The translations under genes were made by a program, and so were the position numbers. A stretch of DNA of 64,000 bases from an uncultured Ruminiclostridium sp. (GTDB taxonomy: Bacteria; Bacillota; Clostridia; Oscillospirales; Ruminococcaceae): contig CAYVZH010000010.1 of assembly GCA_964456025.1 (NCBI GenBank), positions 349-64,348 on the forward strand. Reading direction: 5' to 3'. The notes beneath the pieces were generated by a model, which did not search any database, was not told where the DNA came from, and was given only the letters and a program-made list of their open reading frames with translations. Below are positions 1,890 to 61,030 of the stretch, in pieces; the first letter of the stretch is position 1, and the number at the start of each line of letters is the position of its first letter.

Positions 1890-1990
1890 TACTGTTTCAC
1901 GACCCGAATGTGTACAAAAATTCAAGCAAAAGCTTTGATTTATGCGGTTTTGTGCAGAATTTTTGTCTACACATTGGGAGTGAAACAGTA
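1890..1990 (+). mobile_element. Family A palindromic MITE-like element (101 bp)
   Basis: Terminal inverted repeats TACTGTTTCAC/GTGAAACAGTA, core CAAGCAAAAGCTTTGATTTATGCGGTTTTG, flanked by TCA and TTA. The TTA is the stop codon of the adjacent gene. Confidence 0.75.
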
Positions 1991-3058
1991 TTAGGAAAAG
2001 ATCATTGTACTCAGCAGGTTTGCCAGCGCCCCCGTATACGTGTCGATCATCAGAAGCACCGCGACCGCCATCGGAACCGTCAGCAGGAGCATTTTCACCT
2101 TTTTCCCGTTCCCGATCTCGTCCCAGACCTTCGGGACGCGGTAGCGGCGGATCTGCTTCAGCTTGATGAACAGGTGGACGATCCCCGCGAGCCCGAGCAG
2201 AAGCGCGCTGATCGTATAGACCGCGAAAACGACGATCATCAGCATATCCCCGTCGGGGATCTCGCCCTCCGCCGCGCCCGAAAGAAGGTAATCCTGCACC
2301 GAGGGCGTGGCGATCAGGAGGGCGATCCCGCCCGAAACGCTGTTTACCAGAATGTGGATCACCGTCGTCGGGATCAGCGAATCGGTCACGTCCGCGATAT
2401 AGCCGAGCGCGATCCCGATCGCCGCCGCGTAAAAGCACTGGCTTAAATTCCCGTGGAAAAGGCCGAAGAAGATCCCGGTAAAAAAGATCGCAAGACCGTT
2501 CCCGTAGGGCTTCAGCGTCCGAAGCAGCGTTCCGCGGAACACAAATTCCTCAAAGATCGGCGCAATGACCGCCGCGAATAGGAAAAATGCCCAGGCGGTT
2601 CCCATGTTCGGCGCAAGCATTTGCGTGATCGGATTCATGGATTCGGTCAGGTCGCTGTCCTTCGTGGCGAAATAGGTCACCGCGACCGTCAGAAGGTTCA
2701 GAAGCTGTCCAAGCCCGTATACGGCAGGGAAGTTCCCGACCGCGCGGGCGCATTTTTTCGGGACATGGTACAGCGCGCGCAGCTTTTTGCCCCGTTCGCC
2801 GAAAAACCCGAACATTCCCGCGCTGATGACGGCGGGGAGGAACTGTAAAAAAAGGAAAGAGACCGTTAAATGGAGAAGATAGAGCGCATCGGGAGAAAGA
2901 CGTTCCCCGCCGAGCCGGTAAAGCAGCTCCAGCGAAAGGCTCGCGGGAACGCGGAGAAAAATAATGACCGCCGCGAAAACGCCCACCTTATAGGCGGTCT
3001 TTTTATATTCGGGAAGCAGGGAAACCACCTCCACCGATTCGGATATTCTTTCTTCCAT
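1991..3058 (-). CDS. CPBP (CAAX/Abi) family intramembrane glutamic endopeptidase
   Basis: APIFEEFVFRG, FGLFHGN and VIHILVN motifs; multi-TM. Confidence 0.85.
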   Translation of the reverse strand: MEERISESVEVVSLLPEYKKTAYKVGVFAAVIIFLRVPASLSLELLYRLGGERLSPDALYLLHLTVSFLFLQFLPAVISAGMFGFFGERGKKLRALYHVPKKCARAVGNFPAVYGLGQLLNLLTVAVTYFATKDSDLTESMNPITQMLAPNMGTAWAFFLFAAVIAPIFEEFVFRGTLLRTLKPYGNGLAIFFTGIFFGLFHGNLSQCFYAAAIGIALGYIADVTDSLIPTTVIHILVNSVSGGIALLIATPSVQDYLLSGAAEGEIPDGDMLMIVVFAVYTISALLLGLAGIVHLFIKLKQIRRYRVPKVWDEIGNGKKVKMLLLTVPMAVAVLLMIDTYTGALANLLSTMIFS

Positions 3059-3094
3059 GCGCTTTTCCTTCCTTGTTTTTTGTTTAGACAGAAT

Positions 3095-3450
3095 TTTAAG
3101 AGAAAAAATATATTACCGGGGGACGCTGTCCCCCGAACCCCCTGCAACCCTTTGAAAAGGCTTGACCTAAACTTTAATATTGCTTTATTGGGATATAATA
3201 AAAAGGAGAAAGTTTTTTACAATTAGACAAGTTTAGGAAAAATTCGACGAATAGTTAAAAATTCCTTGCTTTTAATAAATTTGAAAAAGCGATATTGCCT
3301 TTCGCTTCCTTTCGGTGTCGAAAGGAAGTGGGGTTCGGGGCGCGACAGGAGGTCGCGAGGTAAGCGCCCAAGGCGCCGCACGGACGCGGCGCAAAACAAA
3401 GCGCTTGCCAACGAAGCTCCCCAAAATAAATATATTTTCTCTCTTTTTTC
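3095..3450. repeat. Family B bipartite REP-like element (two inverted arms around a 99-bp AT-rich spacer)
   Basis: Left arm ends AATATTGCTTT (3186) and right arm starts AAAGCGATATTGCC (3286). GGGGACGCTGTCCCC hairpin. 3155-3186 is the exact reverse complement of 63501-63532. Confidence 0.75.
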
Positions 3451-3470
3451 TCTTATAATCTCTCAAAAAC

Positions 3471-7569: not shown

Positions 7570-7649
7570 GGAACGCCCTCCGTAAAATCACGACCCCGAA
7601 AACGAACGGGAACCGCGGGATTTCACCCTGTAATAATAAATCAACCTTA

Positions 7650-7680
7650 TTTTCGGTACACTTTTCATCGAAAATCAGTA
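7650..7680 (+). mobile_element. Family A MITE right-end remnant
   Basis: TTTTCGGTACACTTTTCATCGAAAATCAGTA matches the right end of the copies at 43154-43412. It is followed by TCA, the livH stop codon on the minus strand. Confidence 0.6.
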
Positions 7681-8568
7681 TCAGACCTTTTCCTGTATGT
7701 TCTTTCCGAGAATTCCCGTCGGCTTTACAAGAAGAATCACGATCAGGATCAGGAATACGATCGCGTCCGCCATCTGCGAGGAAATATACGCCTTTCCGAG
7801 GATCTCGATGATCCCGATCAGAAGCCCGCCGATCATCGCGCCGGGGATTGAACCGATCCCGCCGAATACCGCCGCGACAAACGCCTTGATCCCGGGCATG
7901 GTTCCCGTATAGGGGGTAAGCTGAGGATATGCCGAGCACATGAGCGCGCCCGCGATCGCCGCAAGCGCGGATCCGATCGCAAAGGTAAGCGCGATCGTTC
8001 CGTTTACGTTGATCCCCATGAGCATGGCGGCGCCGCGATCCTCCGAGACCGCCTGCATAGCCTGTCCCGCCTTGGTTTTCTTAATAAAGAAGGTCAGGCC
8101 GATCATAATCACGATACAAGCCCCGATCGTCGCCAGCGCGATCGGCGTAATCGTAAGCTCGTCGCCCGCAAGCTCGATCGGCGGCGCGCTGATCACGGGG
8201 GTAAAGGTCTTTGCGTCCGCGCCGAAGATTAAGAGCGCGATATTCTGAAGAAAATAGCTGACGCCGATCGCCGTGATCAGTACCGCGAGCGACGAGGACG
8301 CGTTCCGGAGCGGGCGGTAGGCGATCCGTTCGACCACGACGCCGAGGACGGTACAGAACGCCATCGCGATCAGAAGCGCGAGAACCGCGTTCATTCCGAA
8401 ATTCGCCATACAGGTAAACACCGCGAAGCCGCCGATCATGATGACGTCTCCGTGCGCGAAGTTCAGCATTTTCGCGATCCCGTAAACCATGGTATAGCCG
8501 AGCGCGATGATCGCGTAAACGCTCCCGAGACTCAGCCCGTTAATAAAATATTTTAAAAAGCTCATCAT
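7681..8568 (-). CDS. livH: Branched-chain amino acid ABC transporter permease
   Basis: FINGLSLGSVYAIIALGYTMVYGI..LNFAHGD; start set at MMSFLK after an AGGAG RBS. Confidence 0.95.
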   Translation of the reverse strand: MMSFLKYFINGLSLGSVYAIIALGYTMVYGIAKMLNFAHGDVIMIGGFAVFTCMANFGMNAVLALLIAMAFCTVLGVVVERIAYRPLRNASSSLAVLITAIGVSYFLQNIALLIFGADAKTFTPVISAPPIELAGDELTITPIALATIGACIVIMIGLTFFIKKTKAGQAMQAVSEDRGAAMLMGINVNGTIALTFAIGSALAAIAGALMCSAYPQLTPYTGTMPGIKAFVAAVFGGIGSIPGAMIGGLLIGIIEILGKAYISSQMADAIVFLILIVILLVKPTGILGKNIQEKV

Positions 8569-8779
8569 AGGAGAAGGCTCCTTTCTGTCCCGAATTATGC
8601 CCGCGCGTCGGGAGCGGGAAAAGATCAAATCACCGGTATACCCGCGGTGAAAAGCGGCTCAAAGCGCTCCCGCGGATATACCGCTGATTAAGGCAAATTT
8701 TAAGCGTTCGCCTTAACCGCGCAAACCGCCGACGCGAAATCCGTATCGGCGGTTGACTGTTCGGTAGAAAAATCGGAAA

Positions 8780-11856: not shown

Positions 11857-11900
11857 GACCGTTCCACCTATTATATGTATGATACTGATTTTTGATAAGC

Positions 11901-17058: not shown

Positions 17059-17223
17059 AAAAACCTCCTCTTCCCGTCTCCGGAAAACCGGAGAACGGGG
17101 AAAGCTATCATAAAAACAAAGGAAAATAGTTTGAAAAATCTGCGATTTTTCAAACCCGTCGTTTGTGCCTCGGCAAATCCTCTCGGCGCAAACTTCCTCC
17201 ATAGGAATGGAGTGATCATAATT

Positions 17224-18495: not shown

Positions 18496-19431
18496 ATGGA
18501 AAAGAAAATCAGCCTGAAGGACGGGCTTTTTAAACAGAATATCGTTTTCATGAGCGGGCTTCTGACCGCTCCCGTGATCGCCTGTACGACGACGCTCCCG
18601 AAAAGCCTCGCGGTCTGCCTGGTTTTTTCGCTCGTTTCGTTCTTAACGATCACGGTCTGCCGCGCCGTTCCGCGGAAGATCGCCTATACCCTGCGCGTGA
18701 TCCTGTATTCGTTCGCGGCTTCGGCGTTTTATATCCCCGTTTACTTTTTTACGCTCGCCCTGTTCGGAAAGGCGGTCGTCGGCTCGGCGGGCGTTTATCT
18801 CCCGATCCTTGTCACGAACGGACTGATCCTCTCCAAGACCGAGACACGCTTTTACGGCGAGCCGATTCCCGATATGATCCTCGATACGGCGGTGTTTATC
18901 CTCGGCTTCGACGGGGCGTGTATCCTCGTCGGCGCACTTCGGGAAATTCTTTCGGCGGGGACGCTCGGGGGGAACTATCTCCCGCTCCCGTTTACGATCC
19001 CGGCGCTTGAAACGACCTTCGGCGGATTCCTTTTTGTGGGAATCCTCGCGGGGCTTTTCCGGGGAATCTACAATCACCGGAAGGCGCAGCTTCTCGCGCC
19101 CGAACCGGAGGACGGCGAGGAATCCCTCGCGGAATACGCCGAGGATATGGGCGAATTCCTCGCCGGAGGACTTACGGGGCGGAAGACGGACGCGGATAAG
19201 CCCGAGAAGATCAGGATCTATCACTCCGGAAAAAAGAAAAAACGTCCGCCCGCGAACCTGCTTGAGGTGGAATTTAAGGATAACAGCTCCGTTGTAGAAG
19301 AATTTGCCGCGATCGTCGCGGGGGCGGCAGAGCTTGAGGCAGCGGCGGACTCGGAAGGGGAGAACCCTGCACCGCAAGAAGAAACGGAAGAACAAGCGGA
19401 AAACAGCGAAAGGGAGGGCGAGGACAAATGA
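18496..19431 (+). CDS. RnfE/NqrD-like membrane protein (degenerate) with acidic C-terminal tail
   Basis: GLFKQNIVF, LPILVTNGLIL, ILVGALREILSAG; conserved Cys residues are replaced. Confidence 0.8.
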   Translation: MEKKISLKDGLFKQNIVFMSGLLTAPVIACTTTLPKSLAVCLVFSLVSFLTITVCRAVPRKIAYTLRVILYSFAASAFYIPVYFFTLALFGKAVVGSAGVYLPILVTNGLILSKTETRFYGEPIPDMILDTAVFILGFDGACILVGALREILSAGTLGGNYLPLPFTIPALETTFGGFLFVGILAGLFRGIYNHRKAQLLAPEPEDGEESLAEYAEDMGEFLAGGLTGRKTDADKPEKIRIYHSGKKKKRPPANLLEVEFKDNSSVVEEFAAIVAGAAELEAAADSEGENPAPQEETEEQAENSEREGEDK

Positions 19432-20024
19432 ACGTATTTTTAAGCTTCGTATCCGCCGCGCTCCTCGCGGTCTTTGTCCAGAACTCGGTTCTGGAGCGCG
19501 CTCTCGGCGTCAACGTCCTTTTATACGCCTCGCGGAAAAAGGAACACCTCCCCGGCTTCTTCTTCGCGATCACCTATGTCACGACGATCTCCTCCGCGAT
19601 CGTCTGCGGGCTTGACAGGCTTCTGAGCGGGTGGGAATATTACGCCGCCGTTATGCCGATTCTATATATAACGGTCGTAAGCATGGTCTATATCCTGACG
19701 CTCGTGGTGATCTGGTGGTTTTTCCCCCGTCTCTTCCGCTCGCTCAAAAAATACGTTCATCTTTCGGTTTTCAACTGCTCGGTCATCGGCGCGCTCTTTC
19801 TGGGCGGACAGCTCGGCGGCGATCTCCCCTCCTATCTCGGCTACGGCTTCGGGACGGGGGTCGGCTTTCTCGTCGCGGCGTATCTTCTCTATATCGCGCG
19901 CGACCGCCTTTACTCGCCGCTTGTGCCCGCGGCGTTCCGCGGATTTCCGATCATGACGGTCTATGTCGGGATCCTTTCCCTCGCACTGTACGCGTTTACG
20001 GGGTATTCGACGGCGGCGAGGTGA
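19428..20024 (+). CDS. RnfA/NqrE-like membrane protein (degenerate)
   Basis: FVQNSVLERALG, FNCSVIG, GTGVGF, AAFRGFPI..VGILSLA; overlaps the upstream stop (ATGA). Confidence 0.8.
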   Translation: MNVFLSFVSAALLAVFVQNSVLERALGVNVLLYASRKKEHLPGFFFAITYVTTISSAIVCGLDRLLSGWEYYAAVMPILYITVVSMVYILTLVVIWWFFPRLFRSLKKYVHLSVFNCSVIGALFLGGQLGGDLPSYLGYGFGTGVGFLVAAYLLYIARDRLYSPLVPAAFRGFPIMTVYVGILSLALYAFTGYSTAAR

Positions 20025-20028
20025 CCAA

Positions 20029-20128
20029 TACTATTTCACTTCCAATGTGTAGACAAAAATTCTGCACAAAATCCATTTATCCAAGATTTTGTTTGAATTT
20101 TTGTACACATTTAGGTCGTGAAATAGTC
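20029..20128 (-). mobile_element. Family A palindromic MITE-like element (reverse orientation)
   Basis: TACTATTTCAC..GTGAAATAGT termini; the interior is the reverse complement of 1890-1990; begins 5 bp after the rnfA-like stop. Confidence 0.7.
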
Positions 20129-20261
20129 AACTTCCTTTTGCGAAACGAAAACTTTTTTGCAGGGTATTTTCGTTCCCTTTCTCTATGCTTCTTCGTTTTA
20201 AATAAGGTTTGTGCATTTTTTGTTCCTTTGGCTGACCAAAGGAACCGAAAGTTCACCTCGG

Positions 20262-20335
20262 CAAAAGCTTTGCTTGCGCCGCGTCCGTGCGGCGCCTTGG
20301 GCTTTTGCCTGCAAGCCTCCTGCTTGCCCTCTGCG
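20262..20335 (-). repeat. Family B sub-module (reverse)
   Basis: Reverse complement CAGGAGG..CCCAAGGCGCCGCACGGACGCGGCGCAA matches 3345-3400 and 63560-63615. Confidence 0.65.
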
Positions 20336-20732
20336 CTGTTCTCAACCCGTTTGTACAAAGAAGAAAGGTAAGAGAAAAGAACAAGGCTCGTTTCTTTTTA
20401 AATCCTATCTTAATTTCTCCAAGCTTCCCCCATTGTACAATCAAGTTTGAACTGTGCAGTCCTCAATTGTACTGCACAAAGACACAGAACACCCCCCTTG
20501 CAGTCAATCAAGAGCGACGGAGGTATTCGGTTCCGGCAGAGATCGGTAAAAAATAACAGGAAATTGCCGCTGTACGGATTTTCTTCCCCGGGTTTATTAT
20601 AACTCCTCTCGGCGCTTACTCTGACCGCTTTTTTCGTCCCGCAAGTTTAAAAGATGAAAAAAGAGTTGAGGAGAAGCGACGAGAGGCGACTTTCCGCCGC
20701 TTTGGTCGGTCAAAGCGGCAAAAATAAACAAG

Positions 20733-20815
20733 CTTTCGCTTCCTTTCGCCGCCGAAAGGAGGCAGGGGTGTGGGGACGGCGTCCCCACAATAAAATAATT
20801 TTTCTCTTATTATCT
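20733..20815 (+). repeat. Family B arm (solo)
   Basis: TTTCGCTTCCTTTCG..CGAAAGGAGGCAGGGGTGTGGGGACGGCGTCCCCAC plus T-rich tail. Confidence 0.65.
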
Positions 20816-22111: not shown

Positions 22112-22351
22112 AAGAACATGTCTTCACAAGAGAATTGCACATCTTTTCGGAAAAATTGCCGCAGACTTTGTCAAATTTCCTTGAAATCCGAAAGGATTCC
22201 CGCAAAAATTTTCCGCGTCTGCAACAATTTTTCTCCGAAAATCCGCACAATCCTCTTATGAAGACAAGTTCCAAGACGATCTCATATCCAGAGATTTTTC
22301 GGGCGGCACGCCTGCCCTAAAAATAAAACCCGAAGAAAGGAGTAATGATTC

Positions 22352-40283: not shown

Positions 40284-40326
40284 AGATTTTTCCTTTTTGT
40301 TTATTTTTGAGAGATTTAATAAATTT

Positions 40327-40610: not shown

Positions 40611-43127
40611 TTATTTCTTTTTAATCAGCTCGGCGGGGATCTGAGAAACCGCCGTAATGACCAGAACGATCACGGGCATGAACGGGCTTACCGCCGCCAG
40701 TCCGAGCGCGGTATTCAGGTACGGGATATAGACCGCCAGCAGCGCCGCAAGCACCGCGATTCCCGTCGCGATTCCGGCAAAGGACTGCCCCGAGCGGACC
40801 GCGTCCCACACGCCATGCTCCGAAAGATTGATCCAGCCCGCGATCAGCAGCCCGAAAATCAGGATAAAGACGAAATTCGCCGCCGACTGCGGAGAAAGCG
40901 CCGCGACCGTTTCCGCGCTGTTCACGCCGTAACCGGACGAGATCAGGTAAAAGATCACCTCCGCCGCAGTCAGCCCGAATGCCTGCACGAGCGGGCGAAG
41001 GAAAAACCGCTTTCCAAGCTTTCCCGTCGCGGTAAAACGGGACGAGGAAAGCTCGTCCTTCTGCCGCGCGGTGTTTTCGAGAAACATCATGGAGATCCCC
41101 GGAACCGCCGCGATCCCGATCAGACCGACCAGCATGGGCGAGAGGATAAACGGCGTTCCGAGCAGGAGATTTACGACCGCGAACGCCGCGAGCGTGACCG
41201 CCGCCGTCAAATGAACCGCTGCGCAGCGCTTCGCGTTCGAGTAGGTCTGCCGCGCGGAGCGGAACAGCTCTACCACCGTCTCGAAATTATCGTCCGAAAC
41301 GGTAAGCTTTGACGCTTCTCCCGCCGCGCCCGTGCTTGTCCCCGAAAGAGCGATCCCGAAATCCGCCTGCTCGAGAAGATCGCTGTCGGGGTCGCTTCCC
41401 GCCGAGACCGCGACGACCTCGCCGCGCTCCTGTAAGAACCGCAGGATCAGGGGCTTCTGATCGGGCGTAATCCGAGCGAATAGGCCAACTCCCGTCAGAT
41501 CGGGCGCGATCCCGCTTTCCTCCGCCGCGCGAAGCTGTTCCCCCGTGAGAACGTTCATGTCCCGAAGTCCGACCTTCGCCGCGATCGCGGAAGCCGATTC
41601 CGCGCTGTCACCTGTCATCATCACGACCCGCATTCCCGATTTATAACAGCTCCGCACCGCGAAGGGGATATTGTCCCGCGTCTTATTCTCGAACGCGAGC
41701 AGCCCCATAAAGCTGTACCGAAGATCGGAAACCGCCTCGGGCGGATCGGCCTCCTCGCCAAGCGTCGCAAACGCCGCCGCGAGGACAAGATAACCCTGCT
41801 TCTCAAAGCTTACAATCTTATTCTGCACCGTATAAAGCATGTCCGTCGGAACATCGCAGAGCGGAAGGAGCCGTTCGGGCGCGCCCTTTACGCAAAGCAG
41901 CCTTGCGCCGTTTACGTTCCAGAGATTCCCCATTGCGGTTTCCGCCGAATCGAAGGGGTATTCCCGCAGAAGCTCGTTTTCCTGCAAATCCTTTACGTCC
42001 GCGCCGCGGAATGCCGCGTCGAGAATGATCGCTTTATCGACATTATCGGCTTGCTCACCCTTCGCGCAGGCAAGCACCGACACATTCGTCATCATTTCCT
42101 CATTCGCGGTCAGAACGTCCGCAAGCTCGAGGCGGTTATTTGTAACTGTCCCGGACATATCAATGCAGATACAGGTGACCGCGCTCATGTCCTCGACGCA
42201 GCGAAGCTCCTTTACCGAAGCGCCCTGCGCCGCCATCGCGCGCGTCCCGTAAATGTAATAAATACGGATCAGCGAAGCCGCCTCACACGGCACAAAGCAG
42301 AGGGCGAACGCGGTCGCGGGGTAGAAGGTGTGGTAGATCGTCTCAAGGATCGGATTTTCGGCGAAAATGTCGATCTCGGTAAAGTGAAAAAGTGCCGCGA
42401 AAATAAGCAGTACCCATGACGTCAGGCTCAGAATGCGGCTCACACGCAGAACGACCCGCTCCAGTGCGGTAAAATACTCGTCCGTCTCCTTCGGCGCGCC
42501 GAAGGTTTTAAAATGCTTGGTATCGACATTCGTCCCCGTGACCCGCGCAGCGAGACGGCCCGTCACGATCTTTGTACCTTTATAAATACAGCTTCGTTTC
42601 AGCTCCTCGTTAAGGCTTGCCGCACCCGTAATTTTTTGAACGGGGGTCTTATCGCCCGTAAAAACGCTTTCATCGACGGTCAGGTCGTAAATCTCAAGCA
42701 AATGCGCGTCGGCGGGAACGCGTTCTCCCGCCTCGAGCAGGAGAATATCGTCGGGCACCAGATGCTCGCGCCGCACGACCGACAGCTCCCCGTCCCGCAC
42801 CACGTGATAATACACGCGGGAAGCGCGTTTCAGCTCAAAAAAGTATTCGTCGCACTTTTTCCCCTTTATGATCTCGGTCACCGCGTACAGCGCAGATAAC
42901 GTGGCGAGTACCGCGCCTGTCAAAAAATCAGCATAGACAAAGGAGAGCGCCGCCGCCGCGATCAGGAGCAGAAAACGCGCGCGGAAAAAGACCCGCACCG
43001 GCGAAAAACCCTTTTCGCGCTCGTCGAGCTTCGTCTCGCTGTTAAATCCGTAAAGCTTTCGGTTCTCGGCGACCTTTTCCTCCGAGAGACCCGTATATTC
43101 GTTTTTAAAATCCCTTAGCTGTATCAC
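40611..43127 (-). CDS. Cation-transporting P-type (P2-like) ATPase with degenerate motifs
   Basis: YGFN, DAHLLE..VDESVFTGDK, CIDMSGTVT, KGAPE, MMTGD, FARITPDQK. GTG start after AAAGGA; the ORF extension is repeat sequence. Confidence 0.8.
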   Translation of the reverse strand: MIQLRDFKNEYTGLSEEKVAENRKLYGFNSETKLDEREKGFSPVRVFFRARFLLLIAAAALSFVYADFLTGAVLATLSALYAVTEIIKGKKCDEYFFELKRASRVYYHVVRDGELSVVRREHLVPDDILLLEAGERVPADAHLLEIYDLTVDESVFTGDKTPVQKITGAASLNEELKRSCIYKGTKIVTGRLAARVTGTNVDTKHFKTFGAPKETDEYFTALERVVLRVSRILSLTSWVLLIFAALFHFTEIDIFAENPILETIYHTFYPATAFALCFVPCEAASLIRIYYIYGTRAMAAQGASVKELRCVEDMSAVTCICIDMSGTVTNNRLELADVLTANEEMMTNVSVLACAKGEQADNVDKAIILDAAFRGADVKDLQENELLREYPFDSAETAMGNLWNVNGARLLCVKGAPERLLPLCDVPTDMLYTVQNKIVSFEKQGYLVLAAAFATLGEEADPPEAVSDLRYSFMGLLAFENKTRDNIPFAVRSCYKSGMRVVMMTGDSAESASAIAAKVGLRDMNVLTGEQLRAAEESGIAPDLTGVGLFARITPDQKPLILRFLQERGEVVAVSAGSDPDSDLLEQADFGIALSGTSTGAAGEASKLTVSDDNFETVVELFRSARQTYSNAKRCAAVHLTAAVTLAAFAVVNLLLGTPFILSPMLVGLIGIAAVPGISMMFLENTARQKDELSSSRFTATGKLGKRFFLRPLVQAFGLTAAEVIFYLISSGYGVNSAETVAALSPQSAANFVFILIFGLLIAGWINLSEHGVWDAVRSGQSFAGIATGIAVLAALLAVYIPYLNTALGLAAVSPFMPVIVLVITAVSQIPAELIKKK

Positions 43128-43153
43128 GAAGCGTCCTTTCCGTGAAAATTTCA

Positions 43154-43463
43154 TACTTATTTTCGCTGAAAAAGCGTCGAAAAAATCAAGCAAAAACTTG
43201 GATTTGTGCGGTTTTGCGCAGATTTTTTCGGTACGCTTTTAAGCGAAAATCAGTATCATGCTGCTTCACGACCCGAATGTGCACAAAATCCAAGCAAAGA
43301 CTTAAATTTGTACTTATTTTCAATTAAAAAGCGTCGAAAAAAACAAGCAAAAGCTCGGATTTATGCGGTTTTGCACAGATTTTTTCGGTACACTTTTAAG
43401 CGAAAATCAGTACTATGCGGCTTTGCGCAGAATTTTTGTTTACACATCGGAAGCGAAGCAGTA
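43154..43463 (+). mobile_element. Stack of three family A MITE-like copies (one tandem, one nested)
   Basis: Copy 43154-43255 flanked by TCA/TCA; a second copy (43259-43310 plus 43413-43463) is split by a third copy (43311-43412). Confidence 0.75.
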
Positions 43464-43567
43464 TCGGTCACTTTTTGTCATTTTTGACGAAGGGGCTGTC
43501 CCGTTTGATATTTCTATCTATTATATCACATTTTTTCCGAAATTGCAACACCTCGGGAAAGAATAAA

Positions 43568-43633: not shown

Positions 43634-44260
43634 TCAGCTCACCACAAACATCGTTTCTACCCTGCCTGCCGGCATACACAGCCGCGTCGGGAAAGAGCAG
43701 GCATATACGCCCGTCGCGAGAACGCAGTTATCCGTAAAGTTCTGGCTGTCCACCTCCGACCAGCTGCCGTCTGTCCAGTACGCCGCCGATACGCGGTAAT
43801 GATCGTCGATCACCGCATAAAACGTCCCGTCATACGACGTTTCGGTAAGACGCTCATTCACCAAACGCATAAAGCTTTCCACAAAGCTCCGCTGATTCGC
43901 GTCGGATATTGCCGCGAGCGTCGTCTGCGAGCCGCCCGATACGGCGATCCCGCAATCTGCGTTTGTAACCCGACCCTTTTCGCCCGCCACGACCTCGGCA
44001 TATAAGATGATGCTGTCACCCGCCGAGGCAACAATATGGTCGCCCGAAAGCGTTCCTTCACCCGTGAGATGTTTCCGGCTCGCGAAGGTCTGTGCCGTGT
44101 AATAAAAATCCTTCGCATAGCCTTTTCCCGCCGCGGGGCGATCGCTCGTCAGCAGCGTCGGCACAGCCAACGCAATCAGAACGCCAATGATCGCAATCAC
44201 AATGATCAGTTCCACTAAAGTAAAGCCTTTTTTCGCTTTCAGCTGTTGAATTTTTTTCAT
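43634..44260 (-). CDS. Type IV pilin-like protein (minor)
   Basis: Class III signal KKG/FTLVELIIVIAIIGVL. Confidence 0.9.
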   Translation of the reverse strand: MKKIQQLKAKKGFTLVELIIVIAIIGVLIALAVPTLLTSDRPAAGKGYAKDFYYTAQTFASRKHLTGEGTLSGDHIVASAGDSIILYAEVVAGEKGRVTNADCGIAVSGGSQTTLAAISDANQRSFVESFMRLVNERLTETSYDGTFYAVIDDHYRVSAAYWTDGSWSEVDSQNFTDNCVLATGVYACSFPTRLCMPAGRVETMFVVS

Positions 44261-45188: not shown

Positions 45189-45866
45189 TTAGATGATGGT
45201 GAGCTTCGGAGAAGTACCAACGATGTCGCCCGCAGCGGTAACACCCGCCGTATTGCCGTCCCAGCCAGCAACGTGAACCTTGTTGTTCAGAACCGCAGGA
45301 GTGGTGGGAGTAGCAGCAGTCATGTCGAAGTGGTTGGTGATTACTAAGGGAGTTGCCGTGTCAGCAGTGTACGCACAAGCGATAACGTGACCGCCGGAAA
45401 CCGCCGCAGCAACCTGACCCGCCTGGATATCCGGGAATAAGCCCGCCAGCTGGATCGCCATCAAATCGGTAACATTAGTGGCCGCGCTCTTCAGCGTGGT
45501 GGTCGTACCGGTACCGGAAGCCGCCCAAGAAAGAGTACCTACGTTGAACGCGGTCGTATCGTTAGTAACGGCAGCGGTCCAAGTGGTAGTACCACCGGTG
45601 GTAGAAATCGTGAACGTGAAATCAGAGTACGCAACACCCTTCTTCATGCCATAACCGTTGGTATCGCAATCGGTAAGGAACGCGTCGATCTCCTTCGCGA
45701 ACGAAGCAGCGGTGGAGTCCGCGCTGGTAACACGGGAGTTCGTTACGTAACCTAACATCGTAGGTACGAGGATTGCGGCAAGTACACCGATGATCGCAAT
45801 AACTACGATTAACTCAACGAGTGTAAAGCCTTTTTTTGCCTTGAGCTTCTGGAAAAACTTAATCAT
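45189..45866 (-). CDS. Type IV pilin (probable major pilin)
   Basis: KKG/FTLVELIVVIAIIGVLAAILVP; strong AAGGAGG RBS; Thr/Ala-rich. Confidence 0.92.
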   Translation of the reverse strand: MIKFFQKLKAKKGFTLVELIVVIAIIGVLAAILVPTMLGYVTNSRVTSADSTAASFAKEIDAFLTDCDTNGYGMKKGVAYSDFTFTISTTGGTTTWTAAVTNDTTAFNVGTLSWAASGTGTTTTLKSAATNVTDLMAIQLAGLFPDIQAGQVAAAVSGGHVIACAYTADTATPLVITNHFDMTAATPTTPAVLNNKVHVAGWDGNTAGVTAAGDIVGTSPKLTII

Positions 45867-48270: not shown

Positions 48271-48325
48271 AAAATCTGTAATATTCGACAAGTTCGTTGA
48301 AAAATCGTCGAATATTACAGATTTT
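48271..48325. terminator. Perfect 19-bp inverted repeat between convergent genes
   Basis: AAAATCTGTAATATTCGAC / GTCGAATATTACAGATTTT with a 17-nt loop. Confidence 0.55.
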
Positions 48326-48346
48326 CGTTTTTTCAAAACATGACAG

Positions 48347-48440
48347 AAAGCAATATTGCTTTTCGCTTCCTTTTGGCTACAAAAGGAAGCAGGGGGTATG
48401 GGGGACAGGGTCCCCCAAAAACATATACTTCTCTCTTATA
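48347..48440 (+). repeat. Family B arm
   Basis: AAAGCAATATTGCTTTTCGCTTCCTTTTG..CAAAAGGAAGCAGGGGGTATGGGGGACAGGGTCCCCCA. Confidence 0.7.
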
Positions 48441-48445
48441 ATCTC

Positions 48446-51400
48446 TCACTCAACCGCACGAAACTCCGTTTTTTCGCCCGTGGCGAGATCGACGGTCATG
48501 ATCATGTGATCGGTCACGGCGTAAAGGATCCCGTCCCGGATCGCGGCAACCCGATCCTTCGACTGAATGTCATAAAAAGACAGCTCCGCCGCTTTTTCGA
48601 GAAATGAGCCGTTATCGGCAAAGCAGACAAAGCGCTCAATCTCGGAAATCCCGTCAAAGGCGACATACGAGACCGCCGCGTATTTTCCGTCCTCGCTTAC
48701 GGCGATCCGCTCGCTGTTTTCTTCGGCGTCGCCCGAGAGATAGCGCGCGTATTCGGGCGCGGTTTTTTCATCAACCCCGATCCGCGCCGAACGCAGAACC
48801 GAAAGCCCGTTCTCCTTGTCATAGCCGTAAACCGAGAGCAGGAGCGCGGTTCGTTTCCCGTCCGCGTCCGACTCGGCGGAAAGCCCGATCAGGTTTTCGC
48901 CGAAGCCCGAAAGCTTTTCATAATAAACCGCGTTCGGGTTCGCTTCCGCCGCCATAGGCTCCTCCCCCGTAAAATCAACACAGTAGAGCTTTGTCTCACT
49001 CTCCGTTTCGGTCACAATATACGCGATTCCGTCGAGATAGCTCACCCCGCTCAGCCGTTCGCCCGCCGCGAAGCCTTCAAGCCGCACGTAGCCCTCCTCG
49101 GTCTTTTTTTGTGCAATAAGCGTGCCCTCCGCGCTGTTGTACGAAACAATACAGTTCTCCTCCGCGCTCAGGCAGTCCGCGCCGTAGCATTCTCCCCGAA
49201 CCGTTTCCTGCGAGAGAAGCTCGGTACCCGTCCCGATCCGCCGGAGCCGGATCAAATGCGTCGTGTTCCAGTCGGGGAGAAGGAGCGTGATCCGATCCCC
49301 GTCAAACACCGCGTACGTATCATAGCCGCCGAGAACGGCACTTACGCGGGGTTCCCCGCCGCTCACCGTTCCGATCACGGAAAATCCGCCGCATACCGCG
49401 CCGTCGGCGAGCAGGATCTCCTCATACCCGAGCGCTTGCTCCGTTTCCCCGATCCCATAGCGCGGGAAAACCGTATGTCCGCCCGCGGGAGTGACCGACG
49501 TAACGAGGGTAAAAATCCCGTCGCCGATCCAAAGCGCGGAATACCGCCCGTCCTGCCGATATGTTTCGATCGGGGAAAGCGCCTTATCGTACACCTCGAC
49601 CCGTACCGAAGCGCCCTCCTCGTCATAAACGAGGTAGACCCGATCTTCCCGCGCGGTAAAGCCGATGAGACCGCCGTCCGCGCTCAGGGGAAGCTCCGCC
49701 GAAACGCGCGGAGCCTCGGGCGAGAGGGAAACGGCGCGAAGCGCACCCTGCCGCAAAAAATAAAGCGAATCGCCCGCCGCCCGAAAGTCGTCGGTCAGCG
49801 GCTCAGAATACGGCTGTGCGCCCGTCCGATAGGGCAGGAGGATGTTTTTCTGCACGCGGGATTTCATTTCCGACGCCGCGGCGAGCACGTCCGCGTCCGA
49901 CTCGATCGTAACCGTCGGAGATGACGGCACGGGCGCGTCAATTATCTCCTTCTCGGTCGGGAGCACCGTCCCCGTCATCAGGAAGCGGATCCCGAAGCTC
50001 CCCGCGATCAGAAGCACCGCGCATACCGCGCAAAACGCGAGTTTTCCATTATTGACGCCGCGATAATAGACGTCGTCGTCAATGAAAAACTCCTTACCCT
50101 TGTATTTTTCGCGGCGAGGCTTTTCGGCTTCCTCGTCGTCGCCGAGGTCGGGAACCGTCGGGCGGAACACCTCCGGAGCAGGCGCGTCCGGCTTTTTCCG
50201 CGGCGCGGGCTTTTCCTCCTCGCCCGAAAGCTGCCCAAGTACCGCCGTATTGACGGGCGGCGTAAAGGCTCCCGTATTTTCGGGACGGACGACTTTTTTC
50301 TTTTTTGCGGGCTTTTCCTCTTCCTCGCCCGAAAGCCGCCCGATCACCGCCGTATTGACGGGCGGCGTAAAGGCTCCCGTATTTTCGGGACGGGCGCCTT
50401 TTTTATTTTTCGCGGGCTTTTCCTCTTCCTCGCCCGAAAGCCGCCCGATCACCGCCGTATTGACGGGCGGGGTAAAAGGCCCCGTGTTTTCGGGACGGGT
50501 CTCTTTTTTATTTTGTGCAGGCGCGGACTTTTCCGCGTTTTTCTTTGCGGGGAGGGGCTTTTCCGCCGCGGAGGGCTTTTTCCGCTCCACGGTAAAAAGA
50601 CCCGCCTGTTCCGTCTGCCGGCGCTGTTCTTCCTTTTTCTCTTTCCATTCGAGAAGCTCGTTTCTCCGCTTTACGGCGGAAAGAAGCTTATAATAATCCT
50701 CCGAGGTGAGCGGCGAGCTTTCGAGAAGCTCGATCAGCCGTCCCTTCGTCAGATTCGGATTTTCCTGAATCTCGCGGTAAACGTCGTTGCTGATCCGGGT
50801 GTTTCCGATCAGCTGTAAAAATTCCTTCCCCTTGATCCGCTGCGCGCTTATCACGCCGATAAACGTCCTCGCGTCAAGCGGCTTCCCGCCGGAAGCGGAT
50901 TCCGTTTCCGCTGCGGGCTTCGTCTCGTCCGATTTCCCGTCGGGCGCTTCCTTTTCGAGAAGATGTCTGTCTTCGGGGAGCGGCTTTTCTTCGGGGGGCA
51001 GATCCCTTTCGGGCATGGGCGGCTCCGTACGATTCGGTCGGACCTCCGCAGGGACGGGAACGGCAAGCTTTTTCTGTTTTTCCTCCGGGAAACGGATCCC
51101 CTCGATCTCCCGAAGAACCGCCGCCTTCTCCTCGCCGAGCTTTTTCTCCGAATCAATCAGCTTCCGCTCGACCGTTTCGTCCTTCAAGCCCGTAATGACC
51201 GAAATTTCGTGAATATTATAATGGAAGGCATACGACATGGCGCAGACGATCCGATCGAGGCTCGGGAGCTCTGAAAACCGACCTTCTCCGCGCGGCTCGA
51301 CCCCCTCCGCGCGGTATTCCTTGATCCGCGCGACAAGGTGCTTGGTAAGCTCGCGGGAAAGCCACGCCTGTAAATGCGCGCCGTCCCGCATCTGCGCGAT

Positions 51401-51571
51401 CCGGGCATACCCGTCCCGAAAAGCGTTTTTTACCGCTTCCCGCGCGTCCTCGGAACGTCCGAGCGACAGAACGGCAGCCGCGTAAAGCCTGTCCGCCGAA
51501 TCGGCGCAAAGCAGATCATAAGCGGAGCGGTCGCCGTTTTTCGCACACTCCAGTTTTTCCGCAGCCGTCAT
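48446..51571 (-). CDS. Fusion: degenerate ECF sigma-like N-terminus, repeat linker, TM helix, extracellular beta-propeller
   Basis: Sigma2-like DRLYAAA..EDAREAV..AWL and sigma4-like LPSLDRIV..HEISVITG..TVERKL; TM LAFCAVCAVLLIAGSFGI; GERLSGVSYLDGIAYIVT resembles Beta_propel family repeats. Confidence 0.7.
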   Translation of the reverse strand: MTAAEKLECAKNGDRSAYDLLCADSADRLYAAAVLSLGRSEDAREAVKNAFRDGYARIAQMRDGAHLQAWLSRELTKHLVARIKEYRAEGVEPRGEGRFSELPSLDRIVCAMSYAFHYNIHEISVITGLKDETVERKLIDSEKKLGEEKAAVLREIEGIRFPEEKQKKLAVPVPAEVRPNRTEPPMPERDLPPEEKPLPEDRHLLEKEAPDGKSDETKPAAETESASGGKPLDARTFIGVISAQRIKGKEFLQLIGNTRISNDVYREIQENPNLTKGRLIELLESSPLTSEDYYKLLSAVKRRNELLEWKEKKEEQRRQTEQAGLFTVERKKPSAAEKPLPAKKNAEKSAPAQNKKETRPENTGPFTPPVNTAVIGRLSGEEEEKPAKNKKGARPENTGAFTPPVNTAVIGRLSGEEEEKPAKKKKVVRPENTGAFTPPVNTAVLGQLSGEEEKPAPRKKPDAPAPEVFRPTVPDLGDDEEAEKPRREKYKGKEFFIDDDVYYRGVNNGKLAFCAVCAVLLIAGSFGIRFLMTGTVLPTEKEIIDAPVPSSPTVTIESDADVLAAASEMKSRVQKNILLPYRTGAQPYSEPLTDDFRAAGDSLYFLRQGALRAVSLSPEAPRVSAELPLSADGGLIGFTAREDRVYLVYDEEGASVRVEVYDKALSPIETYRQDGRYSALWIGDGIFTLVTSVTPAGGHTVFPRYGIGETEQALGYEEILLADGAVCGGFSVIGTVSGGEPRVSAVLGGYDTYAVFDGDRITLLLPDWNTTHLIRLRRIGTGTELLSQETVRGECYGADCLSAEENCIVSYNSAEGTLIAQKKTEEGYVRLEGFAAGERLSGVSYLDGIAYIVTETESETKLYCVDFTGEEPMAAEANPNAVYYEKLSGFGENLIGLSAESDADGKRTALLLSVYGYDKENGLSVLRSARIGVDEKTAPEYARYLSGDAEENSERIAVSEDGKYAAVSYVAFDGISEIERFVCFADNGSFLEKAAELSFYDIQSKDRVAAIRDGILYAVTDHMIMTVDLATGEKTEFRAVE
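50212..50498 (-). repeat. Three 105-bp coding tandem repeats
   Basis: CGGGACGG anchors at 50281, 50386 and 50491; encodes RPENTG(P/A)FTPPVNTAV(I/L)G(R/Q)LSGEEE. Confidence 0.9.
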
Positions 51572-51752
51572 GCCGTCACTTCCTTTCTTGAATATTACTA
51601 ACATATTATTATAGCATAAATTCGCGAAAAAGGGAAGGTTTTTTTGAATTTTTGTTTCTTTTCGAAAAGGAAAACAGATTTTGGGGAAGGTTATCTTTTG
51701 AGAATAGATTTGTTCCGTTCTCCCAACCGCAAAAGAACCGTCGGAAAAACGC

Positions 51753-59532: not shown

Positions 59533-59705
59533 TTACTTTGGCAGGAGTGCGCCCCACCCTTTTCCGTGGCACGGCGGCTTTTCGGTTGAATCTCCGCCGA
59601 AATGAAACCGCGCGGTTATTGAAAACCGCGCCGGAATCAGGTATAATAGAGATAAAGAAAACGCGGCACGCCTGCCTAATACGAATCTGCGATGAAAACC
59701 GCAGA

Positions 59706-59757
59706 TAAAAATCTGCGCAAAACCGCATATATCAAAGCTTTCGCTTGATTTTTTGTA
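59706..59757 (-). mobile_element. Family A internal core remnant
   Basis: AAAAATCTGCGCAAAACCGCATATATCAAAGCTTTCGCTTGATTTTTTGTA is the reverse complement of the family A core; termini absent. Confidence 0.65.
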
Positions 59758-59800
59758 TGGTTTTCAATCGCATATTAGTATAAAAGAAAGGAAAAATATC

Positions 59801-60619
59801 ATGAAAAAGATCCTCGGAGCCAACATCGCGCGGTATCGGAAGGAGATCGGCCTGACACAGCGGGAGCTTGCCGAACGGCTGAACATTTCCTGCCAGGCGG
59901 TAAGTAAGTGGGAAAACGGTCAGACCGCGCCCGATCTGTACCTCCTGCCCTCGATCGCCGAGCTCCTTCACGTCAGCACGGATCGCCTGATGGGGTGCTT
60001 CCACCGCTTTGATCCCGTGAACGATTACGAGAGCCGCTATAACACCGACGAATATTACTGGGGTGTAAAGCCCTCGTATATGTGCCTGAAAATTCTCGAG
60101 CTTCTGCCGCCCGACCGCTCCCTGAGCGTTCTGGACATCGGCTGCGGCGAGGGGAAGGACGCCGTTTTCCTCGCGCGCTGCGGCTATCGGGTAAGCGCGT
60201 TCGACGCGACCGAGATCGGCGTGGAAAAAACCAAGCGGCTCGCGGAAAAGGCGGGCGTTTTCGTGGACGCGTTCACGGCGAATCTCCTCGATTTCCGGCT
60301 GGATCGGAATTTCGACATTTTATTTTCCAGCGGCGTGTTCCACTTTATGAAGCCCGAGCTGCGCGAGGAAATCATTGAAAATTACAAGCTTCACACCAAC
60401 CCGAACGGGATCCACGCGATCAACGTGTTTGTTGAAAAGCCGTTCGTCCCCGACCCGCCCGAAAAAGAGGTGCGCTATCGCTGGAGAAGCGGCGAGCTGT
60501 TTACGATGTACCATGACTGGTATATCGAGGACTGCTCGGAGGTGGTATTTGACTGCAATTCGAGCGGCGTTCCCCATAAACACGCGATGAATACGGTATA
60601 CGCAAGGAAGAGAACGTAA
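59801..60619 (+). CDS. XRE HTH fused to a TehB-like class I SAM methyltransferase
   Basis: LTQRELAERLNISCQAVSKWENG; VLDIGCGEGKDAVFLA; YKLHTNPNGIHAIN. Confidence 0.85.
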   Translation: MKKILGANIARYRKEIGLTQRELAERLNISCQAVSKWENGQTAPDLYLLPSIAELLHVSTDRLMGCFHRFDPVNDYESRYNTDEYYWGVKPSYMCLKILELLPPDRSLSVLDIGCGEGKDAVFLARCGYRVSAFDATEIGVEKTKRLAEKAGVFVDAFTANLLDFRLDRNFDILFSSGVFHFMKPELREEIIENYKLHTNPNGIHAINVFVEKPFVPDPPEKEVRYRWRSGELFTMYHDWYIEDCSEVVFDCNSSGVPHKHAMNTVYARKRT

Positions 60620-60642
60620 GGAGCTTTTCCGAAAGGAACCCC

Positions 60643-60671
60643 TTGACAAATCCCCCGAAATATGCTAGAAT
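60643..60671 (+). promoter_or_regulatory. Sigma-A promoter of the T-box leader
   Basis: TTGACA-17-TAGAAT with TG extension. Confidence 0.8.
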
Positions 60672-60686
60672 AACCTCAATATCCAC

Positions 60687-61030
60687 AAAGCGTTGATGGG
60701 AAAGCAGTAGGAACCGGTTTTTCCTTTCATACTGATTTTTAATCAAAAAGTGTACAAAAAATCAAGCAAAAGCTTTGATTTATGCGGTTTTGCGAAGATT
60801 TTTTGTCTACACTTTTATTAAAAATCAGTATCAGAGACCCCGCGGCAGGTGTGAGCGGGGAGGAGCCCGGTTCTCGAATTACCTCCCGGAGCGGCAGCCG
60901 GAACGGGTTTCCTTCGGATTCCCCACTACGGCGCACGGGCCCGCCCGTTACAGCGGATCATAGTAATAAACCGAGGTGGTACCGCGATCTTTCGCCCTCT
61001 TTTGGCATTACGCCAAAGGAGGTTATTTTT
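60687..61030 (+). ncRNA. T-box riboswitch, probable Tyr specifier (UAC), interrupted in Stem I
   Basis: GCGTTGATGGGA..AGTAG 5' end, AGAGA, GGTGTGA loop, GAATTAC-CTCCCGGAG specifier region, CCGTTA, antiterminator AGGTGGTACCGCG..CGCCCT, terminator CTCTTTTGGC/GCCAAAGGAG plus T run. Confidence 0.88.
60730..60830 (+). mobile_element. Family A palindromic MITE-like element inside the T-box
   Basis: TACTGATTTTTAAT/ATTAAAAATCAGTA termini, 101 bp, TCA direct repeats at 60727-29 and 60831-33. Confidence 0.85.

Follow-up and report, generated by a model that had tools for sequence, protein, structure and literature searches.

A ~101-bp hairpin MITE family of gut Clostridia with a TNA target and 3-bp duplications, probably mobilised in trans

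A palindrome of about 100 bp recurs along a contig of an uncultured Ruminiclostridium sp. and raises the question of whether it is a mobile element or a hairpin kept by its host and, if mobile, what kind of enzyme moves it. The stretch analysed here, called the window, comprises 64 kb of this contig. We consider it very likely that the family is a ~101-bp non-coding hairpin MITE, which targets TNA, duplicates 3 bp upon insertion and is moved in trans by a putative DDE-type transposase, with IS5/PIF-Harbinger as the candidate group.

Six full copies, each 100-102 bp long, lie in the window, along with a copy that a nested insertion has interrupted and one clear remnant. The individual features, including a second, shorter candidate remnant, are as follows.

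1890..1990, plus strand: full copy of 101 nt, arm type I (TACTGTTTCACGACCCGAATGTGTAC...), covariance model score 100.5 bits.
7650..7680, plus strand: remnant, a 31-nt right end of type II (the 43154 type), matching those of 43225 and 43382 with 88-91% identity (family D9).
11883..11896, plus strand: possible 14-nt left-end remnant (TACTGATTTTTGAT) after a TGA, with an exact 11-mer in common with the start of copy 60730.
20029..20128, minus strand: full copy of 100 nt, arm type I, 91.9 bits.
43154..43255, plus strand: full copy of 102 nt, arm type II (TACTTATTTTCGCTGAAAAAGCGTCG...), 105.8 bits.
43259..43310, plus strand: 5' half of a split type I copy, model positions 3-54.
43311..43412, plus strand: full copy of 102 nt, type II, 92.1 bits.
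43413..43463, plus strand: 3' half of the same split copy (type I), with TCG after it; model positions 52-101 matched at E = 2.8e-9.
59680..59780, minus strand: full copy of 101 nt, arm type IV, 86.9 bits.
60730..60830, plus strand: full copy of 101 nt, arm type III, 116.9 bits.

Five of the full copies, i.e. all except the one at 59680, had been listed in the original prediction, and all five were found at the positions given there. The proposed split copy at 43259-43463 was likewise recovered as two halves, with copy 43311 nested in its central loop. However, a supposed remnant at 59706-59757 turned out to belong to the complete minus-strand copy at 59680-59780. The remnant at 7650-7680 is real; the one suspected at 11880-11893 has no support beyond the 11-mer and is too short for its assignment to the family to be certain. 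The predicted length of 101-102 bp and the conserved TACT..AGTA ends apply to the copies in general, but copy 20029 measures 100 nt and begins with a degenerate first base (GACT). A 29-nt core, searched with at most 3 mismatches, gave 5 matches in the window versus 0 in 100 shuffles, and the covariance model scored the six full copies at 87-117 bits versus 36-52 bits on the opposite strand. Coding capacity is absent, as the only ORFs overlapping the element are spurious read-throughs. Of the four arm types that thus occur together within 64 kb, three are polymorphic between strains.

The immediate surroundings of the copies agree with the anticipated TCA/TCA or TCA/TTA flanks and with two adjacent stop codons. 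Copy 1890 is flanked by TCA (1887-1889) on the left and TTA (1991-1993) on the right, the latter being the TAA stop codon of an Rce1-like protease gene (1991-3058, minus strand). The TCA at 7681-7683, directly after remnant 7650, is the TGA stop of a branched-chain amino-acid permease gene (7681-8628, minus strand). Copy 43154 has TCA on both sides, with the right TCA common to the next copy at 43259, and copy 60730, located between an HTH-methyltransferase gene and a radical SAM gene that are both on the plus strand, is likewise enclosed by TCA/TCA (60727-60729 and 60831-60833). Copy 59680, downstream of enolase and of its terminator, shows TAA/TAA on the plus strand (59677-59679 and 59781-59783), which corresponds to TTA/TTA in element orientation. 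No clean duplication was seen at copy 20029 (GTT/TTG in element orientation), which lies 4 nt past the TGA stop of an Rnf subunit gene (19428-20024). The nested copy 43311 has the flanks TTG/CTA, and metagenome contig L106 is identical across this region. Relative to the neighbouring genes, six of the seven copies in the window seemed to be oriented consistently.

The element is an almost perfect palindrome with the termini 5'-TACT...AGTA-3'. Its arms of ~45 bp each carry a conserved 2-nt bulge and an A6TC/GAT6 tract, and the hairpin is closed by an apical stem with a ~12-nt loop. Folding energies range from -34 to -44 kcal/mol, with z-scores of -5.5 to -9. Among 39 copies, 94.2% of the stem cells are paired and both sides have changed in 23 of 38 pairs, a level reached in none of 500 shuffles; slid controls gave ~45%. 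The original prediction that the arms diverge between copies and stay complementary within each copy is therefore borne out. Conservation across genera extends to the central 45 nt and is better there than at the ends, and mismatches on the canonical strand are more often G-T than A-C (39 versus 17).

Features of this kind could also be expected of a structured RNA or of a regulatory hairpin kept by the host (a terminator, an attenuator, an RNase III site or a small RNA) that is not primarily mobile. Strong covariation, a centre kept across genera and the excess of G-T over A-C mismatches are all in line with such a function, as is the location of several copies within operons, for instance between two Rce1-like genes or two permease genes, or directly after stop codons. 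In addition, RNA depth in run X13 lies far above the flanks over the element, in data that consist of contigs only, derive from numerous species and could include DNA. We nonetheless consider an RNA function very unlikely to be the primary explanation. No U-tract follows the hairpin, and promoter and terminator scans of the copies yielded nothing convincing. Rfam returned no match at gathering thresholds for the whole window; at E values up to 10, the region 43100-43520 matched only microRNA-precursor models, far below their thresholds, which represents generic hairpin noise. With respect to adjacent genes, the copies are found either way round: over 50 copies, a crude gene call placed 13 and 9 in the two tandem contexts, a difference that is not significant, 10 between convergent and 7 between divergent genes. 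Finally, exact 3-bp duplications and empty sites, described below, argue against this reading as well.

The comparison of orthologous copies bears on the same point. Between the copies L055 and L066, one orthologous pair, uncompensated changes have accumulated in the arms, which suggests that the constraint probably acts on transposing lineages and not on each locus. The predicted selection on the hairpin is thus reflected in the strong covariation of the family but is not seen in this pair. Decay in place is also evident at 7650, where truncated and differently deleted remnants were found; in run X2, 22 nt resembling the family core (AAAAAAGCAAAAGCTT) stand in place of 7631-7684. Covariation could equally reflect a requirement of transposition or correction between the arms.

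Mobility is demonstrated directly by sites that lack the element in related genomes. In three contigs (L135, L136 and L137) that encode an identical enolase protein, the site of copy 60730 is precisely empty: one TCA stands there, as opposed to TCA[101 nt]TCA in the window. At 59680 these contigs show a single CAA or AAA, compared to TAA[101 nt]TAA in the window, and runs X2 and X4, shorter by a net 104 nt, are empty at this position. At 60730, exactly 104 nt are missing at the joint of run X3, where 3 letters can be assigned to either side. Copy 1890 is absent from related strains, in which the joint runs from 1884 to 1995 with 6 or 8 letters in between, which amounts to 104 or 102 nt net. 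Empty and filled sites thus differ by 101 + 3 bp, which indicates mobility together with a 3-bp duplication, although presence and absence could in principle reflect precise loss instead of gain. Elsewhere the comparison is less direct: in runs X2 and X7, 30 nt replace the entire stretch 20025-20739, and in the cross-species comparison with L041 coding regions are 77-83% identical and the intergenic DNA is too diverged for an empty site to be read.

In a young subfamily of another gut bacterium, all 17 copies show perfect 3-bp duplications (TTA in 11, TAA in 5 and TCA in 1), which, together with the empty sites, upholds the proposal of a small non-coding, TNA-targeting transposon. We also considered a MITE derived from IS630/Tc1-mariner that duplicates TA, as Correia and RUP elements do, so that the element proper would be CT...AG and the terminal TA pairs would be the duplication. 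The arrangement TA-CT...AG-TA is read in every copy, apart from the GACT start of copy 20029, and in one host genome an IS630-family element (L053:5740-6747) has TACT...AGTA termini and is flanked by TA. However, the ends of this IS have only TACT in common with the family, and identical triplets lie outside TACT/AGTA in 17 of 17 young copies. The TA-duplication model was refuted by the empty site at 60727-60833, which retains a single TCA and no TA and differs by 104 nt instead of 99, rendering an IS630 origin extremely unlikely.

The same triplets define the target. In 50 non-redundant copies, an identical duplication is preserved in 28 (TTA in 15, TAA in 7, TCA in 6). On the left, 44 copies carry T at -3 and 43 carry A at -1; on the right, 44 carry T at +1 and 40 carry A at +3. 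The target is accordingly T-N-A, mostly TTA, TAA or TCA, frequently preceded by T-rich sequence. Surviving copies are confined to intergenic DNA, and the loops of other copies are hit as well. Insertions next to stop codons, which the original prediction had singled out, account for 8 of the 50 copies; the adjacency is real but modest, and an extended, asymmetric target preference probably explains it. Seven older copies count against our main explanation, as they have the flanks T-Y-G/C-N-R, often followed by TGCAGG, and no clean duplication. When these flanks were read as a 1-nt or a 2-nt duplication of a longer element, the models fitted 5 and 3 of the seven copies, respectively, which is not decisive.

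The enzyme responsible was sought in the window and beyond. As originally stated, the window encodes no transposase, and a scan of its ~55 ORFs against Pfam and NCBIfam revealed no transposase domain. An IS with matching ends and TNA flanks was found neither in ~1 Mb of related DNA (~40 genomes) nor in fecal-virome scaffolds or IMG/VR. Two partner searches were performed, one for inverted repeats with TAC ends lying 150-4000 bp apart and one for 9-mer inverted repeats of any sequence, spaced by 600-3500 bp and flanked by the same TNA on both sides. Apart from chance pairs and other MITEs, they turned up a single IS630-family element, which duplicates TA. One genome contains elements of 158, 78 and 66 nt that have the ~26-nt ends and the TWA duplications in common with the family and are devoid of its centre, which points to the terminal repeat as the cis-acting site.

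A hairpin resembling REPINs or PATEs, moved as single-stranded DNA by a structure-recognising HUH/Y1 transposase (RAYT or IS200/IS605 TnpA), would account for freely covarying arms in a preserved hairpin, for several arm types seemingly active within one genome and for the failure to find an IS with matching inverted repeats. Dispersed ~100-nt hairpins whose structure is better kept than their sequence, with no classical IS partner found, are indeed a trait common to REPIN/REP-RAYT systems and the present family. REPINs, however, are tied to a single-copy RAYT gene and make no target duplication, and Y1 transposases are not known to duplicate their target at all. Given that all 17 young copies as well as the empty sites show an exact 3-bp duplication, that non-palindromic 158-nt relatives with the same ends transpose and that no Y1 domain is present among the ~55 window ORFs, there is very little likelihood of such a mechanism.

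A DDE-type enzyme fits these data better. Duplications of 3 bp at TWA/TNA have precedent in the IS5-related PHIS superfamily (PMC4482050, PMC12730594), and Tourist-type MITEs of the IS5/PIF-Harbinger group are similarly small and non-coding, with terminal inverted repeats and a 3-bp TWA/TNA duplication in AT-rich sequence (PMC4482050). High copy number and insertions that differ between strains are further common traits. The family differs in that no cognate IS5-type transposase or matching-end IS was found and in that the whole unit forms a near-perfect hairpin with arms covarying between subfamilies. Duplication length and TNA/TWA target would make IS5/PIF-Harbinger the best candidate, in agreement with this part of the original proposal; what appears not to agree, besides the missing IS, is the terminus. 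IS5-group ends are of the G-rich GAG/GG type and the TACT termini of the family appear unlike them. We found no open paper giving duplication lengths for the IS1031, ISL2 and IS427 groups, which would be as listed in ISfinder.

Other small elements resemble the family in part. Correia elements (CREE/NEMIS) of Neisseria are hairpin-forming MITEs of ~100-150 bp in intergenic DNA and inside operons, often beside genes, for which we know of no autonomous partner. The family corresponds to them as a ~100-bp hairpin MITE scattered in intergenic DNA and operons, for which our searches found no such partner either, but it duplicates 3 bp instead of TA, is unrelated in sequence and resides in Clostridia. 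RUP of Streptococcus pneumoniae, with 107 bp, long inverted repeats and a TA duplication, is thought to be moved by IS630-Spn1, which has matching ends. Both are Firmicutes MITEs of ~100 bp with long inverted repeats; the family, in contrast, duplicates TNA and no matching IS was found for it. In general terms it has the properties of a MITE: less than ~300 bp, non-coding, terminal inverted repeats, a duplication of fixed length and many polymorphic copies.

We propose that the element is mobilised in trans by a DDE-type transposase making 3-nt staggered cuts, for which duplication length and target suggest IS5/PIF-Harbinger as the best candidate superfamily. The arms would remain complementary because lineages that still transpose need two matching ends or a foldable hairpin, and landed copies would then decay freely. 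Insertions at stop codons would be common and one-sided, since TAA and TGA are themselves T-N-A and the duplication keeps the frame closed; a target preference extending asymmetrically, with T at -5 and -4, may underlie the one-sidedness.

It is awkward for this proposal that four coexisting arm types, three of them polymorphic, are hard to square with one transposase reading a ~26-bp arm. Alternatively, a resident DDE transposase, perhaps single-copy or domesticated, might serve the family in place of a conventional IS. It would recognise nothing beyond the TACT tip, the conserved A-tract with the core, and the shape of a hairpin or cruciform. This would be a counterpart of REP-RAYT in which cutting produces a 3-bp duplication. 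Such an enzyme would leave ~20 bp per arm free to covary and would explain the four polymorphic arm types, a centre better conserved than the ends and the absence of an autonomous copy from our searches. We regard this alternative as unlikely, and mobilisation in trans by an enzyme of the IS5/PIF-Harbinger kind as the preferred explanation.

The family was found in many Clostridia MAGs (Oscillospiraceae, Ruminococcus-like and Lachnospiraceae-labelled) and in Acetanaerobacterium elongatum. Good candidates for hosts with near-identical copies are the source of scaffolds MT835581-MT839986, strain CGMCC 1.5012 of A. elongatum and relatives of the window. A plasmid collection gave no match. In IMG/VR the core pattern had no match, and the end pattern of the young subfamily was present on 6 contigs, where all copies are MITE-sized. 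Matches filed under phages were rejected as a phage element, since they are UNVERIFIED fecal-virome scaffolds with housekeeping genes and thus bacterial DNA; BLAST of the element ends alone retrieved only these same scaffolds. The core strings occurred in no paper that we found, and Clostridia and a TNA target are both absent from a 2024 review of prokaryotic MITEs. The family is an ordinary kind of element that has apparently gone undescribed. Neither of the observations named as refuting the original prediction, fixed copies lacking empty sites or a match to a described repeat or ncRNA, was made. Gut metagenomes cover the element at 10-50 times the read depth of its flanks, and assemblies break inside it. 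Separately, copy L006 has its left flank from one locus and its right flank from another.

Taken together, the family looks like an abundant, still-polymorphic small transposon across gut Clostridia, and its insertions put 100-nt hairpins into operons and right onto stop codons. Every copy breaks short-read assemblies, and the copies provide homologous sites for rearrangement, as exemplified by L006. Gut MAGs would be better annotated and binned with a curated model, which would also supply markers for strain typing. With its kept centre, covarying arms and missing transposase, the family offers a workable case for studying how MITE ends are recognised.

Family A, the ~101-bp non-coding hairpin repeat with TACT...AGTA ends, is real, and the essential reading of the original prediction is correct. 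An nhmmer profile and a covariance model, the latter run unfiltered, recovered the same six full-length copies in the window, and a 29-nt core allowing up to 3 mismatches matched five times, compared with no match in 100 shuffles.

Family A sequences in the window (full copies found with both the nhmmer profile and the covariance model).
1890-1990, plus strand, full copy, arm type I
20029-20128, minus strand, full copy, arm type I
43154-43255, plus strand, full copy, arm type II
43311-43412, plus strand, full copy, arm type II
59680-59780, minus strand, full copy, arm type IV
60730-60830, plus strand, full copy, arm type III
43259-43310 and 43413-43463, halves of a split copy, arm type I
7650-7680, remnant, 31-nt right end, arm type II
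11883-11896, possible scrap, 14 nt at best

The five full copies predicted originally lie at the coordinates given and could be aligned end to end. The stretch 59706-59757, then taken for a remnant, is indeed family A sequence but belongs to a complete copy flanked by a TAA/TAA duplication. The split copy proposed around 43259-43463 consists of two halves of a single element, with copy 43311-43412 nested in its central loop. At 7650-7680 the expected remnant was recovered as a right end, while the possible one near 11880-11893 amounts to a scrap at best. Four arm types (I-IV) coexist among the copies of the window.

Every copy is a near-perfect palindrome with TACT...AGTA tips. The arms contain ~20 variable positions each, paired with the partner arm, as well as a paired A6TC tract opposite GAT6 and a conserved 2-nt bulge in the 3' arm (GTAC vs GTCTAC), and the hairpin is capped by an apical 7-bp stem with a loop of ~12 nt. 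Folding energies lie between -34 and -44 kcal/mol (z-scores -5.5 to -9). When 39 distinct copies are aligned, Watson-Crick or G-T pairs fill 94.2% of the stem cells and 23 of 38 stem pairs (168 cells) show changes on both sides, strongly bearing out the claim that the arms diverge yet remain complementary. These covariation values were reached by none of 500 shuffles, and sliding the partner column lowered pairing to ~45%. G-T mismatches exceed A-C mismatches (39 vs 17), but the cells are non-independent events and no weight is given to this excess.

Selection on the hairpin had been proposed as the cause. Two findings speak against host-level selection at each locus: in two orthologous copies with identical flanks (loci L055 and L066) the arm changes are uncompensated, and remnants decay by deletion too. 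Both observations argue for a constraint acting on lineages that still transpose rather than on each locus. A further observation points another way: three arm types are polymorphic among close strains of the window's lineage, which is awkward for one transposase reading variable arm positions and leaves room for shape recognition, or correction between the arms, as the source of covariation.

Mobility is shown by empty sites on three comparison contigs (L135, L136 and L137), whose encoded enolase protein is identical to that of the window. For copy 60730 they read CTT TCA GAGACC, and the window CTT TCA [101 nt] TCA GAGACC; for copy 59680 they read CCTGCC CAA AAGAAAGG, and the window CCTGCC TAA [101 nt] TAA AAGAAAGG. 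Relatives also lack copy 1890 (net difference 104 nt), and in them the adjoining gene stops with TAG, not TAA. Metagenome contigs agree: one joint omits exactly 104 nt, with 3 letters fitting either side. A duplication of TA, the element then being CT...AG, is ruled out, as no TA is present at the empty sites. In the young subfamily, whose copies come from the bacterium behind a set of fecal-virome scaffolds and are 91-100% alike, all 17 complete copies show a perfect 3-bp duplication (TTA 11, TAA 5, TCA 1). Together with the empty sites, this confirms the predicted TNA target. Among 50 non-redundant full copies pooled from all sources, left and right triplets are identical in 28; T occupies -3 in 44 and +1 in 44, A occupies -1 in 43 and +3 in 40, and positions -5 and -4 are T-rich.

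As predicted, the flanks at 1991 and 7681 are stop codons, with minus-strand genes ending there. Two neighboring paralogues, Rce1-like CPBP protease genes (911-1900 and 1991-3058), are parted only by copy 1890. For 8 of the 50 copies, a long ORF terminates exactly at the right-hand triplet, which serves as its stop codon, and 4 further copies have a stop within 6 nt on the right; on the left, no exact stop was found and one lies within 6 nt. Since TAA and TGA are both T-N-A and the duplication retains the stop, insertions of this sort do no harm. The simplest explanation for the bias to one side is an asymmetric extended target, TT-TNA, in agreement with a TAA that precedes A-rich sequence on the sense strand of the gene. 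Orientation relative to neighboring genes showed no significant bias (13 vs 9 in tandem contexts). Every copy is intergenic, consistent with selection removing insertions into genes.

Seven older copies have T-Y-G as their left flank and C-N-R as their right flank, the latter often continuing TGCAGG or TGCGGC. This class comprises copies in loci L107, L099, L095, L097, L082 (at 2312) and L020 (two copies) and the nested window copy 43311. The adjoining bases are G and C, not A and T, and are therefore still mutually paired. A shorter duplication combined with a longer element fits some of these copies, not all. The sequence to their right resembles the family A centre (TTTATGCGG / TTTTGTGCAG). 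We conjecture an insertion preference beside a centre-like motif, which is present in each copy's own loop and would explain nesting. At a further locus, the copy L006:177-277 has the left flank of L031:5474-5574, the right flank of L086:7654-7754 and mismatched triplets (TGA/TTG), and looks like the product of a rearrangement in which two copies recombined; the MAGs concerned are related.

Further elements, 158, 78 and 66 nt long and with TWA duplications, occur in the young-subfamily genome.

MITEs sharing the family A ends (158, 78 and 66 nt).
L113:6780-6937
L122:3450-3527
L111:28569-28634
L118:640-705

They have the ~26-nt ends (TACTAATCTTCAATCAACCTACAGAC) in common with family A and lack its centre, the interior being different and non-palindromic, or almost absent; the 78- and 66-nt forms seem to be 158-nt elements that have lost internal sequence. 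The ends thus suffice for movement in that genome, and the centre is therefore dispensable for it there.

The window derives from a gut bacterium of ~54% G+C and shows synteny, with 77-83% identity, to a MAG that bears the label Roseburia sp. NALB_7821b_33. A core pattern scan of one genome per species, followed by nhmmer, located this 100-nt element in numerous MAGs of Clostridia (under the labels Ruminococcus, Oscillospiraceae, Acutalibacteraceae-like, Lachnospiraceae and Bacillota) and in cultured Acetanaerobacterium elongatum. JGI metagenomes added 17 stretches, one identical to the window, and the plasmid collection gave no match. Matches in the phage collection were UNVERIFIED fecal-virome scaffolds encoding MutS2, a MatE transporter, a histidine kinase and carboxylases; such housekeeping genes mark bacterial DNA, and the matches do not point to a phage element. 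These records (GenBank MT835581-MT839986, 'Bacteriophage sp.' from human fecal samples; L110-L128), which have ~48% G+C and also carry a carboxyltransferase gene, appear to be bacterial chromosome fragments inside a virome data set. Read depth over family A in gut metagenomes is 10-50x that of the flanks, and Logan contigs end 28 nt inside the element.

Further repeats and features were observed in the window.

3076-3410, 20274-20322, 20733-20815, 40325-40418, 40495-40569, 48299-48441 and 63310-63679, second, composite repeat family
17109-17220, third repeat
22136-22247, minus strand, 112-nt palindrome
50214-50528, three tandem 105-nt units

The composite family is G+C-rich, with small hairpins (GGGGACGCTGTCCCC, GCTTCCTTTCGG...CGAAAGGAAG) plus TTGACCTAAACTTTAATATTGCTTT, and lies upstream of genes in both orientations; assemblies break inside it, and metagenome depth is 80-150 against ~10-20 in the flanks. 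The third repeat contains TTTGAAAAATCTGCGATTTTTCAAACCCGTCGTTTGTGCCTCGGC, lies directly upstream of an RnfD-like gene, matches stretches in L107, L095 and L041 at 87-92% identity, and has a metagenome depth of 127-146 vs ~10. The palindrome (TGTGCGGATTTTCGGAGAAAAATTG...CAATTTTTCCGAAAAGATGTGCAA; covariance model 23 bits, E ~0.007) represents either a separate sequence family or a very remote relative. The tandem units, 79-91% alike, lie in frame in ORF 48446-51604 (1052 aa), whose N-terminus resembles sigma-70 region 2. Two neighboring pilin-like paralogues (43634-44260 and 45189-45866) carry N-terminal methylation motifs and have a 67-nt stretch in common (76% alike; at 44178 and 45781). A ParB gene at the left edge (3-701), a cumulative GC skew declining steadily over the whole window and the location of most genes on the minus strand suggest that the window may be situated on one replichore near the origin of replication.

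As originally stated, the window holds no transposase: none of ~55 ORFs scanned has a transposase domain (Pfam; unassigned ORFs also NCBIfam). The search for an insertion sequence with matching terminal repeats was negative throughout: two structural searches of ~1 Mb of related loci gave no autonomous candidate, and BLAST with the ends alone and an end-pattern scan of IMG/VR returned MITE-sized copies only. The sole yield of the structural searches was a 1008-bp IS630-family element (L053:5740-6747) with two ORFs that contain the DDE_3-like motif HTPKHASWLNMAEIE; its inverted repeats are TACTCTGTAAAGTC, and TA is duplicated within the palindromic site TAGTACTA. It was rejected as a partner, as it shares only TACT at the ends and duplicates TA. 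The IS1031, ISL2 and IS427 groups of IS5 (ISfinder) make 3-bp TWA/TNA duplications. Such a duplication is also the defining trait of the PIF/Harbinger (PHIS) superfamily, which is related to IS5 (PMC4482050; PMC12730594). The transposase acting on family A would accordingly be sought in the IS5/PIF-Harbinger type, with the 3-bp TWA/TNA duplication as the one feature pointing there.

Family A shows every generic MITE feature other than a demonstrated autonomous partner. It behaves as Tourist-type MITEs do, duplicating 3 bp at TWA. As 100-nt intergenic hairpins, Correia and RUP elements look similar, but their defining TA duplication is absent from family A. The criteria of REPIN/RAYT and IS200/IS605 exclude family A on account of its target duplication. 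It matched no Rfam family, and no paper with the core strings was found among the searchable literature. Family A is thus a polymorphic and apparently undescribed MITE family, widespread in gut Clostridia, that duplicates 3 bp at TNA. This kind of element is well known; the notable pattern is that the centre is conserved while the arms covary.
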